A stretch of 13,555 nucleotides of DNA from a virus (IMGVR_UViG_3300026224_000027:1-13555); one strand, 5' to 3'. Counted from the first letter of the stretch, positions 1 through 9,312 are shown. Made by a program: numbers and translations. Notes: generated by a model from the sequence alone, not told the origin.

Positions 1-2
1 TA

Positions 3-488
3 TCATGCCTGTTTTGCGACCTCATTCACTACGTCATTTTTTACCATCCGGCTGATAATCAGATTACACAAATCGTCAATAATTGACTGCACTCTGTTTA
101 CTGCCATCGGTTTAAGCCCAGCATCACGTGCCAGAATACTGGGGAGTTTTTCCAGTTCCTCGCTTACGATTTCTCCCCATATAGCCATCTCTTTTCGCAC
201 ATCATCGGCGGGTATGAGTTGCGCCGTTTCCTGTTCGAACTTGAGGCGCTCACGTTCGGACTGATACCAGGCCTTACGGTCGTGTGGCTCCATTTCTTCC
301 AGTGATGCCGGAACGGGAAGATCAAGAAAACAGGTCAGAATGTCAGTCACCCGATAGAGTTTCAGCTTGTCATGTCCTCCGGCTGGCTGGATATTTTTCA
401 GCCTTGCCGCCGCAGTCTGGCGACATATTCCCGCTATCGCCGCCAGCTGGTTAATGTTCAGCATCAGATTTTTCAGTTCCCGATCCAT
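3..488 (-). CDS. Phage terminase small subunit, Nu1-like (partial; C-terminus beyond window start)
   Basis: N-terminal HTH-like segment LNINQLAAIAGICRQTAAARLKNIQPAGG followed by an acidic coiled region, resembling lambda Nu1 (by recall). ORF track starts at a TTG (545); the ATG at 488 with GGAG 5-6 nt upstream is the likelier start. Confidence 0.5.
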   Translation of the reverse strand: MDRELKNLMLNINQLAAIAGICRQTAAARLKNIQPAGGHDKLKLYRVTDILTCFLDLPVPASLEEMEPHDRKAWYQSERERLKFEQETAQLIPADDVRKEMAIWGEIVSEELEKLPSILARDAGLKPMAVNRVQSIIDDLCNLIISRMVKNDVVNEVAKQA

Positions 489-715
489 ACCCGCTCCAGA
501 ATGTTTTAAACATGCATCTTGCAAATATCTTTTAAAAAAGGTCAAAAAACGCGCTGTATGTTGAACACAAAATAAGCAAAATTAACATACCAAAAATAAA
601 AGCACTTAAAATTCAATATGATAGAAAGATGATGATGACGAATGAAAATGCAAAAACCAGCCTTTTTCCGCGCCGCTCCCGCCCCGTGGCAGACCACCCC
701 ACCGGGAGGACCCGT

Positions 716-738
716 AAAAAAAGGCGGCTATCGCCGCC
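716..738 (-). terminator. Rho-independent terminator after capsid gene
   Basis: On the minus strand, GGCGGC-(GATA loop)-GCCGCC hairpin followed by TTTTTTT (plus A-run 716-722), 8 nt after the capsid stop at 746. Confidence 0.5.
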
Positions 739-745
739 CTTGTTG

Positions 746-1507
746 TCATGCTCCACTCGATTTCAGTAATCCGCGATAGTCGAGGGCCGCGACACCTGCA
801 TCTATGCGCACCTTCCAGGCGACGCCATCAACAGTAAAGCCCTCCTGCTCCTCAAGATATGGCGTATCAATACCATCAAGATAAGCGACCTCTATCGTGT
901 CCATACCCTTCGCCGCTGCCACATACCACTCCTTGTTATTGGCTTTATCAAGACGTGGCTCAACGATTACCTCCGCCATATCTTTCACCACGTTAATGAT
1001 GCCGGGGTTCTGATTGATAGTGCCCACGCCATCAACCGGAAAGAGTGATGACGATGACAGAATGGCGCGATGTGCGGCAGACTCCAGCGCGGCGGGGACC
1101 AGGACAAATGCAGGGGTAATATTCAGCGAATCGCCGTTAGCGTCTTCCTGGAGGCGCATCAGCTTACGGGCTTCGTTAAGCCCCTCCATGTCCATATCCT
1201 TCGCAATAAGATTTTTATGATCGGCATGGAATAACGCTTTACCATCCGTAAACTTGCCGTTGCTGGTTAACAGGAGATAAACCAGATTGCCAACTGTTCT
1301 GGCAGCTGCGCGTCCCATCGCCATGGGGATTGTAGTTAACTGGGTCAGGTCATCGTTGATAATGGCCTGACGGGTAACGGAAAATATATTCCCGTACGTG
1401 GCCAGCGCAATAGGTACACCTTTATCGCTGGTGGTGATGTATTTATATTCCGCACCTTCCGGTACTTTATCCAGCTTTGAAAAACATTCAGACCAACGCG
1501 CTTTGCT
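746..1507 (-). CDS. Major capsid protein, C-terminal portion (second reading frame of the protease-capsid fusion gene)
   Basis: Frame is open from the stop at 1508-1510 down to 746; reads ...ATYGNIFSVTRQAIINDDLTQLTTIPMAMGRAAART... with capsid-like character. Contiguous with but frame-shifted relative to the 1345..2658 ORF. Confidence 0.5.
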   Translation of the reverse strand, partial: SKARWSECFSKLDKVPEGAEYKYITTSDKGVPIALATYGNIFSVTRQAIINDDLTQLTTIPMAMGRAAARTVGNLVYLLLTSNGKFTDGKALFHADHKNLIAKDMDMEGLNEARKLMRLQEDANGDSLNITPAFVLVPAALESAAHRAILSSSSLFPVDGVGTINQNPGIINVVKDMAEVIVEPRLDKANNKEWYVAAAKGMDTIEVAYLDGIDTPYLEEQEGFTVDGVAWKVRIDAGVAALDYRGLLKSSGA

Positions 1508-6706: not shown

Positions 6707-6724
6707 ATGTGTCATAGCTCCCCC

Positions 6725-6949
6725 CTAGGCTGCCTTACCTGAATTAACGCGGTCACGGCTTTGCACCCAGTCCATAACTTCGGAAAGCAACCAGCCTACA
6801 GAACGCCCCCCAAGATTACGGCGAGACGGAAAGCCCCCTTTCTTCTCCAGTTCGTAGCGTGTAGTACGGCTGACGCCTGTTAACTTACGACATTCATCCT
6901 CACGAATTACGCGATCTGTTAGTGATTGAAATTGTGTATTTTGATTCAT
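6725..6949 (-). CDS. alpA: AlpA-family transcriptional regulator (excisionase-like HTH)
   Basis: 74 aa; C-terminal segment LGGRSVGWLLSEVMDWVQSR resembles the AlpA conserved region (GxxSVGWxExEIxxWxxxR); positioned downstream of int in the same orientation, as in P4-like elements and Gram-negative PICIs. Confidence 0.75.
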   Translation of the reverse strand: MNQNTQFQSLTDRVIREDECRKLTGVSRTTRYELEKKGGFPSRRNLGGRSVGWLLSEVMDWVQSRDRVNSGKAA

Positions 6950-7052
6950 AAAAACACCCTCGAACGTAACCGAACGAGGGCATCTTATTTACCATAGCAG
7001 TTGGTGCAATATTGGAAAAATAAACTTTATTCTAATTTATCGTTCTCCATGA

Positions 7053-7907
7053 TTAATTTTCATTAGATAACATTTTTCTTATTTTTTCTAAAGAATCGCT
7101 GCGCATTATTTTTTCTAAGAAGGGTTTTACAGTCTGAGCAATAGCAAAGGTGTCCTTTTCACCATCAGGGTACAAAGATACGGCAAGCACCCCTAATGAA
7201 ATTTTTCTATCTGTAGACAACTCCCAAGATAATAAGTCAATTAATGGGATTATCTTATAATCAATAATTTTACGTCGTATGCTTTCCCAACTTCCTGCAA
7301 TTGGTTTGTCTGGCTCAACAATTGAAAGTTCACTACGCCATTTTGGTAATAGTTTTGTAAACGCTTCAATCAACTCATCATCTCTGTTATGTAGTAAGTC
7401 AACAGAAACAAGCATATTATCTAATGTATCAGAAAGGAGATTCACTGGTTCACGCATCACAGCCCAAAACATCCCATTATCTTCTGATATTAAACTTCCA
7501 ACCATCTCATTATCTATGATGATTGGTTTATCCTTCCAATATCCTCTTTCCGCAGTCAGTTTATTAATCATTGATATATCAAACCTTGTTACAGGTTTAA
7601 TTCCATCATCATAACTTAGCTCAATTAACTTCGGTTGCACTTTATGGTCATATTCTTTTTGTTTATCACAAAACCAATCGTCTTCTTTCAGCTCTCCAAA
7701 TGGATCCCCGTAATTATTATGCAACGGGTATTCAGCACCAAACATAAATCCATATTCAGGCATCTCAGAATGTTTCATTGTTAAATCATCTTGTCGCCAA
7801 TATAATTGGCGAAATAGATCTTTATCCGACAAGTTTTCTAGGCAATCATATTTGCCTAAATCAAATGACTTTGGTAAATCTTTTTTACTATTTACTTTTT
7901 TCGTCAT
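7053..7907 (-). CDS. Hypothetical protein (284 aa), AT-rich cargo gene coupled to integrase
   Basis: Start ATG overlaps the int stop (ATGA at 7904-7907). Nucleotide composition visibly more AT-rich than flanking int and alpA. Acidic/lysine-rich protein with no motif I recognise; no obvious signal peptide or TM segments. Confidence 0.6.
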   Translation of the reverse strand: MTKKVNSKKDLPKSFDLGKYDCLENLSDKDLFRQLYWRQDDLTMKHSEMPEYGFMFGAEYPLHNNYGDPFGELKEDDWFCDKQKEYDHKVQPKLIELSYDDGIKPVTRFDISMINKLTAERGYWKDKPIIIDNEMVGSLISEDNGMFWAVMREPVNLLSDTLDNMLVSVDLLHNRDDELIEAFTKLLPKWRSELSIVEPDKPIAGSWESIRRKIIDYKIIPLIDLLSWELSTDRKISLGVLAVSLYPDGEKDTFAIAQTVKPFLEKIMRSDSLEKIRKMLSNEN

Positions 7908-9124
7908 TGTATCCCTCTCAATATCACAATATTTTCATTATATCCTGCAATCACATCAAGACGCTCAACCCATAGATTCAGTGCGTCCCGTTTCGCCTGC
8001 AAATAGCGTGAATGGTTATAGGTTTTTTGCTGACCTGGCATCTGATGCGCTGTGATGTGCTCCACGATATGCGGATCGACACCTAAATCATTCAGCATAG
8101 TTGTAAACGTGTGTCGGAAATCATGCAGCGTCCAGTGTTCCTGCTTAAGCCGCTTATGCGCATTTCGTCCATATTGCGCCACCGTGGTATCTTTTTTCAG
8201 TTCGCCGAGTAATAACCCAGTGTGTGCGTTTTGCTCCACCAGCTTCTGAATGAACGGCAAAATACCATCAGGAATAGGTCGGAATATTGTTACCTTCGTT
8301 TTGCTGTGCTCTTTTGGCACTGTCCACAACATTTCTTTCAGATCCCATTCTTTGATCTCTGAAAGTCTGATCTCTGCCGTTCTGCACCCGAACACAATTA
8401 ACAAGCGCATTAACGCACTGTAATAGGGAGCGAACACATCACCATCAATAGCGCGTAGAATTTCTTTTAGTTCGCTGTTGCTGTGCACTCTCTCGCGGAT
8501 TTCTGCTCTCTTACCCACATCAGTAACGATCAAATCGTCCAGGGCGTTGCTAAACGCGTAGCGCCGCCTGCGGCAAAACTTTAGCGCCTGTTTGCATGTC
8601 TGCATGACATGGCCCGCTGCTACTGGTGCTTTTTTTCGTACGCGGTCAAAACATGCGATCCACTGCCTTGTATCACACTTATCAAGGGGAATTGCCCCAA
8701 TATGGCAAATGATGTGCTTATCCATACGCTGCACCAGCTTTATGTAATCTTTGCGGTTATCCTTCGCATATTCCTCCAGCCAGTAGTTAATCGCTTCCTT
8801 CACCGTAACGGGTTTTAGTGCTTCCTGTACTGTGGCGCACAACTCATAACGGGGGTTTTTACCCTCAGCCAGCCATGCCCGGCACAGTGTGCGTTTTTCC
8901 CTTGCGGCTTTCAGCGACAATTCAGGGTAAGCCCCCAGCTTTAACCGCTCTGCGGCAACCTCACGGCCTCCCGTTCGGTACCGGAAATACCAGGTTAATT
9001 TGCCGCCCTTTGAGTGTTTAATCTCCAGCCCGCCCCCGTCGGAGTAAAAACGCTCTTTTTCTGCCTGGACAGCCACCAATTTTTTTAACGTTGAATCGCT
9101 CAGTTTGTTTAGTGCTTTTCCCAC
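7904..9124 (-). CDS. int: Tyrosine site-specific integrase, P4-like family
   Basis: 406 aa; GTG start with GAGGA upstream. N-terminal arm-binding-like region (GLEIKHSKGGKLTWYFRYR...GAYPELSLKAAREKR), catalytic-domain motifs HDFRHTF and a C-terminal Tyr region (KTYNHSRYL). Confidence 0.85.
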   Translation of the reverse strand: MGKALNKLSDSTLKKLVAVQAEKERFYSDGGGLEIKHSKGGKLTWYFRYRTGGREVAAERLKLGAYPELSLKAAREKRTLCRAWLAEGKNPRYELCATVQEALKPVTVKEAINYWLEEYAKDNRKDYIKLVQRMDKHIICHIGAIPLDKCDTRQWIACFDRVRKKAPVAAGHVMQTCKQALKFCRRRRYAFSNALDDLIVTDVGKRAEIRERVHSNSELKEILRAIDGDVFAPYYSALMRLLIVFGCRTAEIRLSEIKEWDLKEMLWTVPKEHSKTKVTIFRPIPDGILPFIQKLVEQNAHTGLLLGELKKDTTVAQYGRNAHKRLKQEHWTLHDFRHTFTTMLNDLGVDPHIVEHITAHQMPGQQKTYNHSRYLQAKRDALNLWVERLDVIAGYNENIVILRGIQ

Positions 9125-9312
9125 TATCAGATCCTCTTTTCAGTCCTCCAGCCTCAAAAAACTGACCACACAACTGACCACACATTTCGCTGAAGCTCGG
9201 CAAACAACAACGAACAGCAACAAACAAGAAAGCCAATTAAATCATTGTATATCAAACAAATACACAAACAATCACGAACACTCCCGAACTACAAAAAACA
9301 CTAAATGAGAAA

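Follow-up and report, generated by a model that had tools for sequence, protein, structure and literature searches.

An apparent capsid-forming phage satellite is most probably an EcCI224-family phage-inducible chromosomal island

Does a mobile element that encodes its own capsid protein and small terminase build its own particles, or does it rely on a helper phage for them? This question is raised by the 13,555-nucleotide stretch of DNA IMGVR_UViG_3300026224_000027:1-13555 (hereafter the window), in which positions 1-9312 carry an integrase gene, an alpA regulator, a primase-replicase gene, a replication origin, a protease-capsid fusion gene, and a small terminase gene. A reading made from the sequence without database searches (the sequence-only reading) had described a satellite of P4-like or phage-inducible chromosomal island (PICI) layout and had matched it to capsid-forming satellites, which take only tails from a helper. 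Our analysis strongly suggests, with a probability of roughly 0.88, that window 1-9312 covers, counted from the integrase end, ~91% of a classical, helper-dependent Gram-negative PICI of the EcCI224 family. Islands of this kind are already known; the island is catalogued as EcCI224 and is an ordinary PICI, not a capsid-forming satellite. The main result is a correction, by which an apparent capsid-forming satellite becomes a catalogued PICI, and the boundaries, attachment (att) site, origin (ori), and cohesive-end site (cos) are now base-exact.

The identity of the island was established from its att site and from a direct match. The EcCI224 entry refers to E. coli Ecol_224 (CP018948.1, 1961620-1972242, 10.6 kb) and gives AGAAATACCCGTAT as the att core and frmR-thiM as the site (Table S1, Fillol-Salom et al. 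2018, ISME J 12:2114). To map the boundary, we took the empty thiM-rcnR intergenic region of K-12 and aligned it with two sequences, the window and a carrier genome's left junction. The 14-mer ATACGGGTATTTCT was common to both junctions; K-12 and the window (9313-9326) have a single copy of it, and each carrier has two. This core, derived here independently, is the reverse complement of the EcCI224 core. Ecol_224 itself was match H13, with 97.8% identity and 96% coverage of window 1-9400. Because the att core starts at 9313, the island end at 9312 is exact, as the sequence-only reading had placed it; the window divides at 9312/9313, with the island to the left and chromosomal genes to the right.

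The gene content agreed with this identity. SatelliteFinder describes the PICI core by five components, namely an integrase, an alpA/merR/stl regulator, a primase-replicase, a capsid-morphogenesis gene, and a small terminase; it treats tail, holin, portal, and head-tail connector genes as forbidden in PICIs and designates a PICI with all five components as Type A (97% of Type A islands are found in E. coli). The five modules were all present in the canonical order and without forbidden components, the capsid-morphogenesis gene being intact in relatives and frameshifted in the window. Judged against this five-component description, the predicted modules match a Type A PICI. The whole island would measure ~10.2 kb here and measures 10.5-11.3 kb in complete relatives, and the Type A range is ~8-12 kb. 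The earlier view of a helper-dependent satellite lacking tail and lysis genes thus held: int, alpA, primase, and ori were all found, and no tail, lysis, portal, or large-terminase gene was detected in the window by Pfam or PHROGs. As only one (frameshifted) capsid gene and a small-terminase gene are encoded, the portal, large terminase, connectors, tails, and lysis functions must come from a helper.

A P4-like satellite would share part of this anatomy, including int, alpA, and a P4-family primase domain in similar order within ~10 kb. However, no Psu, Delta, Sid, or Epsilon match was present among the ORFs (open reading frames) scanned with Pfam, PHROGs, and NCBIfam (models specific to these proteins were not run), and the primase scored 95.1 bits on TIGR01613 'primase, P4 family', under the cut-off of 108.7. 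P4 also carries neither capsid nor terS genes, and the literature splits PICIs from P4 on such grounds. We therefore regard a P4-like element as highly improbable.

Window 1-9312 is short of ~870 bp at the island's left end, and this end was read in complete relatives, namely three RefSeq genomes (L001-L003) and three loci reached through the exact small terminase (TerS) protein (L006-L008); 22 further similar places were not displayed, and the exact TerS protein was recorded in 3,880 collection blocks. All six relatives exhibited the same gene order: rcnR and int at one end and, at the other, the DUF1441 gene, a 93-aa ORF, ~590 bp of non-coding DNA, the att core, thiM, and thiD. The island ends ~870 bp left of window position 1 and adjoins thiM. 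No portal, large terminase (TerL), head-tail connector or adaptor, or HNH gene was found in the left end or in the rest of the island in any of the six. Tail and holin genes were likewise absent from them, apart from a tail-gene fragment in L002. The 93-aa ORF beyond terS was tested as a TerL remnant and rejected. A public contig, AEJW01000305.1, matches 3,013 bp of the window at 100% identity and runs 135 bp further into the 93-aa ORF. Leftward extension had been expected to reveal a large terminase, a portal, and connectors before the other att junction; in the relatives only the junction (attL) was recovered. No full prophage was contiguous on that side either, and the element remains a satellite.

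These data bear directly on whether the island belongs to the capsid-forming PICIs (cf-PICIs), which assemble and fill capsids of their own and depend on a helper for tails only. The defining set of cf-PICIs comprises a major capsid protein (MCP), a protease, a portal, head-tail connectors, HNH, TerS, and TerL, and SatelliteFinder separates them from PICIs by the portal, the head-tail adaptor or connector, and terL. The island does encode a TerS homologue as well as the MCP and prohead protease, fused in one gene that is frameshifted here, and its capsid gene belongs to a satellite-specific clade under purifying selection, as has been reported for cf-PICI capsid genes. Nevertheless, the lack of a portal, TerL, connector, and HNH gene in the window and in every complete relative places the island outside the cf-PICI definition; moreover, it spans just ~10.2-11.3 kb before it stops at thiM, and its cos is of the lambda type and is not HNH-dependent. 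The cf-PICI explanation is already refuted by the gene content of the complete relatives, and we give it almost no weight. The tails-only dependence assigned previously was not supported.

We further analyzed the capsid fusion gene. In intact relatives it encodes a 637-aa protein, the L003 copy of which scored 904 bits on NCBIfam NF045540 'ClpP-like prohead protease/major capsid protein fusion'. With gp05 of phage mEp460, which is the single protease-scaffold-capsid gene of the head module of that phage, the intact protein shares 58% identity. The window copy is one G short within AATGGTTTTTC (~1484, minus strand; the gap was located against L003 and L001), and the frame is lost after codon 391 of 637, leaving ORFs of 437 aa (1345-2658) and 192 aa (746-1324). 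Fusion residues 1-391 and 446-637 are identical to the L003/GN02100 protein except for H3R. The sequence-only reading was correct in that a ClpP-like protease-capsid gene is present, as Pfam confirmed, but no intact ORF encodes it. The frameshifted product was recorded in only three public contigs, two of which were read and found 100% identical to the window. The same allele in three independent contigs suggests that the mutation is probably real and not a read error, and the near-complete identity to intact copies points to a very recent event. Programmed frameshifting was rejected as an explanation, since the gene is normally intact and just three contigs yield the frameshifted product.

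A 1-bp frameshift has probably abolished the capsid function of the window copy, and this broken gene therefore cannot answer what role the fusion gene plays in this subfamily of PICIs. Whether the copy as a whole was recently disabled, so that it no longer spreads or does so only in helper-sized heads, is in our estimate an evenly balanced question, and such a loss would be compatible with the PICI assignment. The deletion truncates the HK97-fold domain after residue 391, and its recurrence in independent contigs argues against an artefact. Conversely, outside the deletion the gene departs from intact copies only by H3R, an assembly error is possible because five consecutive T follow directly after the deleted G, and the capsid gene of EcCICFT073, a PICI discussed below, is dispensable for transfer.

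To place the fusion gene among its homologues, we scanned one genome per species, and 80 loci were returned. In seven of them, from Trabulsiella, Yersinia, Buttiauxella, Phytobacter, Kluyvera, Moellerella, and Rahnella, the encoded protein reaches 71% identity or more with that of the E. coli PICI. Where upstream DNA was present, an integrase gene, a replication gene, or both preceded these seven, and none of them had TerL and portal genes directly upstream of the fusion gene, unlike prophage copies. Full-length copies with at most 58% identity lay nearly all in canonical TerS-TerL-portal-fusion-tail prophage modules, and tblastn with the mEp460 portal found a portal beside the fusion gene in prophage contexts only. 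Nine satellite fusion proteins were monophyletic in 200 of 200 neighbor-joining bootstraps, with 68-98% mutual identity and at most 64% identity to prophage copies. A 25-37-residue Pro/Ala/Gln-rich linker after the protease domain (fusion residues ~205-225, window ~1985-2045) is missing from all nine, and so is the '(D)ENAIRAQV'-like segment that comes next; both are present in the phage and prophage copies examined. Pairwise dN/dS ratios within the clade were 0.04-0.11. The clade structure, the linker deletion, and the strong purifying selection argue that the satellite fusion gene has a maintained function, the nature of which these data leave aside.

These results also bear on whether the locus could be a decayed prophage remnant that has kept two head genes by chance. 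In favour of this stand the homology of its head genes with lambdoid prophage counterparts, the frameshift in the capsid gene, and the tail-gene fragments of relative L002. A remnant would hardly exhibit precise att repeats, its own primase and iteron origin, the same compact architecture in several genera, a monophyletic clade with such low dN/dS ratios, and a 99.8% identical copy in hosts that differ by ~10% in the flank; furthermore, the frameshifted product is rare (three contigs against 3,880 blocks with the exact TerS). We consider a remnant very unlikely.

A more speculative idea is that the fusion gene alone may let these PICIs build a small procapsid shell around a portal stolen from the helper, with the linker deletion as the size determinant. 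We hold this to be unlikely though worth stating; if true, such 'shell-forming' islands would stand between classical PICIs, whose capsids are all made by the phage, and cf-PICIs, for which tails are the one component not self-made. Most enterobacterial PICIs carry a capsid gene.

We then considered how the island may be packaged. Its small terminase is 65% identical to that of mEp460, and an alternative upstream start (TTG at 545) would extend it to 180 aa. The assignment as a terminase small subunit stood, but the likeness to Nu1 that had been proposed did not: the protein is of the DUF1441 family, exhibits no BLASTP similarity to lambda Nu1, lies outside the Nu1 sequence family, and returned nothing significant in a PDB sequence search for Rpp and Nu1. 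The 227 bp 5' of the terS start codon are homologous to the terS-upstream region of phi458, mEp460_4F5, and related phages. This region contains a lambda-type cosN with a conserved motif at 659-689 and a predicted 12-nt cohesive end, GGGCGGGAGCGG, at 673-684, which lies 185 bp upstream of the terS ATG (190 bp in lambda). At the nick (slash), lambda ...TTACG/GGGCGGCGACCT aligns with island ...CCACG/GGGCGGGAGCGG, and the longer alignment over the nick site pairs lambda ...CCGGTGATCCGACAGGTTACG/GGGCGGCGACCTCGCGG with island ...CCGGTGGGGTGGTCTGCCACG/GGGCGGGAGCGGCGCGG; one phage record starts within the shared motif. Identity to phi458 is 89% in cosN and its flanks and 68%, with a 10-bp indel, in the cosB-like stretch. 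From this pattern we infer that cosN would have been kept cuttable by the large terminase of a helper, and that the island TerS would be paired with its own cosB.

The replication module follows the PICI rule that the origin lies 3' of the replication gene. Ten iterons GGTGAACAGT, in both orientations, occupy 3125-3349, against 0.62 expected in the whole window from dinucleotide-preserving shuffles (repeat families D1-D4), and the GC content of the region is 0.378. This excess and the position indicate that the predicted origin is real.

Several points weigh against the EcCI224-type assignment or against a working capsid role within it. The left ~870 bp are deduced from the relatives and were not read in the window, and the capsid gene of the window copy is broken. 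In EcCICFT073, the only E. coli PICI tested, DNA is packaged in phage-sized heads, and deleting its unrelated lambda-E-type capsid gene did not abolish transfer or interference, so that a capsid role for the fusion gene here is only putative. The C-terminal third of TerS, which by analogy with lambda Nu1 would contact TerL, is its most diverged part, with 48-50% identity to the TerS of candidate helpers; the true helper may therefore be another phage outside the mEp460 group. A literature text search for 'EcCI224' returned no match, and searches on 'EcCI224', 'DUF1441', 'DUF6387', and 'major capsid protein fusion' with 'satellite' returned no functional study.

The insertion splits a riboswitch, the att core being placed midway in the aptamer of the thiM thiamine pyrophosphate (TPP) riboswitch (window 9313-9362 and 9388-9416, minus strand; L005 3337-3433; L003 5072-5206). 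The Rfam TPP model scored 71.2 bits at the empty K-12 site (gathering score 54.3) and 33.3 bits on the thiM-side copy of a carrier, a drop that arises because AT-rich island DNA takes the place of the 5' half. In the window, the orphaned 5' half of the riboswitch is retained together with a promoter-like TTTACA-17-TAACAT, and both now face int. A consensus scan of the island left end revealed no outward promoter for thiMD, and the split riboswitch raises the question of thiMD expression in carriers.

The flanks suggest recent movement. Over window 3099-9312, identity to the E. coli GN02100 island is 99.8%, whereas over window 9327-13431 (rcnR-yehB) it is only ~90% with the same genomes and does not exceed 90.8% in any of 5,426 complete E. 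coli genomes; the jump in identity coincides exactly with the att core. A near-identical island beside a flank diverged by ~10% indicates recent horizontal transfer into a divergent Escherichia lineage and constitutes direct evidence of recent spread between such lineages. To judge from the flank, the host is probably not E. coli in the strict sense. Among the 5,426 complete E. coli genomes, the int-to-attR segment (7904-9312) occurs in 76 and the satellite-type fusion gene in 195; short traces of prophage-type homologues occur in 1,578. Contig AEJW01000305.1 belongs to the draft assembly GCA_000208465.2.

The features of the window are collected in Table 1. Up to 9312 all genes lie on the minus strand except the ylcI/ynfO-like ORF. 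Profile searches upheld the capsid and small-terminase calls of the sequence-only reading and exposed a 306-aa ORF (5795-6715) as spurious, since it covers the Icd-like gene and the opposite strand of ylcI. The 69-aa ORF was tested as a portal remnant and rejected. No tRNA gene was found in the window. PADLOC, applied to ten island proteins (the capsid fusion and primase were left out), gave a single marginal match, AlpA.

Table 1. Coordinates and supporting evidence for features of the window
Feature	Position	Strand	Evidence or remark
Small-terminase homologue DUF1441, 161 aa	3..488	-	Pfam; phrog_141 'terminase small subunit', E 6.8e-57
cos region: cosN, then diverged cosB-like stretch to terS start codon	489..715	-	
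Terminator-like hairpin GGCGGCGATAGCCGCC then T7, 3' of the capsid fusion gene	716..738	-	Seen in the sequence; complementary stem in scan
ClpP-like prohead protease/scaffold/major capsid fusion gene, frameshifted	746..2658	-	Pfam CLP_protease and Phage_capsid_4
69-aa ORF, 4-bp overlap with fusion-gene start	2655..2864	-	phrog_4934 (function unknown)
Predicted replication origin, 10 iterons GGTGAACAGT	3125..3349	.	AT-rich, directly 3' of the primase gene
Primase-replicase, P4-family primase C-terminal domain	3362..5179	-	Pfam D5_N, DUF5906, Pox_D5; phrog_864 'DNA primase', E 1e-191
DUF4222 protein, 99 aa	5176..5475	-	Pfam PF13973, E 7e-17
106-aa protein	5482..5802	-	phrog_15327; hypothetical in relatives' annotation
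Icd-like protein, 67 aa	5795..5998	-	NCBIfam NF033153, E 6e-20; phrog_6196
YlcI/YnfO-family gene, 59 aa; sole plus-strand island gene	6198..6377	+	NCBIfam NF041551, E 2e-16; RefSeq annotation of relatives
AlpA regulator	6725..6949	-	Pfam Phage_AlpA, E 4.8e-16
DUF6387 accessory gene, 34-35% GC stretch, 4-bp overlap with int end	7053..7907	-	
Tyrosine integrase	7904..9124	-	Pfam Arm-DNA-bind_3 and Phage_integrase
attR core ATACGGGTATTTCT, island right boundary	9313..9326	.	Empty K-12 site spans both junctions by exactly 14 bp
rcnR	9454-9726	-	Chromosomal; then rcnA, rcnB, yehA, truncated yehB

Several relatives carry insertions near the capsid gene. L003 (9012-9725) and L006 (6764-7477) carry, at the place of window ~2945-3098, an extra plus-strand gene of 237 aa between the capsid gene and the origin; it is annotated as a HEPN-domain protein in some records and as hypothetical in others, is carried by several near-identical E. 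coli copies, and had no PADLOC match. The interval looks like a variable cargo slot. In L002 (ST131 strain 751), the interval between the capsid fusion gene and cos/terS has gained a gene for a 'tail assembly protein' along with part of a tail gene (6799-7499), which suggests that helper late genes were captured by recombination. In L001 (CUVET16-819), an 86-bp terminator/cos segment (window 642-727) is duplicated between the capsid and primase genes (18177-18261). At the other end of the window, the last ~124 bp (~13432-13555) are the terminal part of an IS3-family element that recurs in thousands of E. coli records; the element disrupts yehB, which is homologous to E. coli only as far as 13431.

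On the basis of this anatomy and of experiments with EcCICFT073, from which the induction, excision, and replication steps are taken, a cycle can be proposed. The island resides at the 14-bp att core inside the thiM TPP riboswitch, the step that the junctions demonstrate. A lambdoid siphophage helper with a head module of the mEp460/cdtI/phi458 type would switch alpA on, and AlpA would activate the minus-strand gene set; Int would then excise the island, and the primase-replicase would fire the iteron origin. Concatemers would be packaged from the lambda-type cos of the island, where its TerS homologue may read the diverged cosB-like DNA and bring a gpA-type large terminase of the helper to the conserved cosN. 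In intact relatives, the fusion gene may supply or reshape the capsid shell around a helper portal, for which SaPIbov5 Ccm offers a precedent, and the helper would provide the portal, large terminase, head completion proteins, tails, and lysis. The window copy may still move as concatemers of ~4 units in helper-sized heads, as has been reported for EcCICFT073; 4 x 10.2 kb amounts to 41 kb, and helper genomes measure 43-47 kb.

Compared with known satellites, the window island is closest to EcCI224 itself, with which it shares the att core and the rcnR ('frmR')-thiM site; EcCI224 measures 10.6 kb. The window copy differs in its frameshifted capsid fusion gene and in a chromosomal flank just ~90% identical to E. 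coli, and it lacks the 237-aa gene that several relatives (L003, L006-L008) have between the fusion and primase genes. EcCICFT073, whose helpers are lambda and phi80, likewise has the int-alpA-pri/rep-ori layout, is transcribed in one direction, is packaged through cos, has captured a capsid-gene homologue, and measures ~11 kb. However, its capsid and decoration genes are of the lambda E and D types, and it retargets the helper TerS through Rpp without a terS gene of its own, whereas in the window island terS encodes a true TerS homologue (DUF1441) and the capsid gene is a ClpP-protease/scaffold/MCP fusion; a PDB sequence search with the TerS homologue yielded no Rpp homologue.

The cf-PICIs (prototype EcCIEDL933, 15.4 kb) share with the window island the int/alpA/rep front end and capsid, protease, and TerS genes that fall in satellite-specific clades. 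They also encode a portal, head-tail connectors, HNH, and TerL and need tails only, whereas the window island has none of these four. A different arrangement is that of helper-embedded satellites (HES; bioRxiv 10.1101/2022.07.18.500453), which two members of the satellite clade match: L051 (Kluyvera) and L090 (Rahnella) each sit within a prophage head module, with a portal gene just upstream of the satellite integrase and, in L090, a TerL gene as well. The window island, in contrast, occupies a chromosomal site, the thiM riboswitch, and does not lie within a prophage.

Ccm of SaPIbov5 comes from a Gram-positive system, belongs to an unrelated sequence family, and has no protease/scaffold fusion. 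Ccm and the fusion protein are both satellite-encoded homologues of a helper major capsid protein on a cos-packaged island. Ccm occupies the pentamer positions and thereby yields small capsids, and it is the nearest precedent for the fusion gene.

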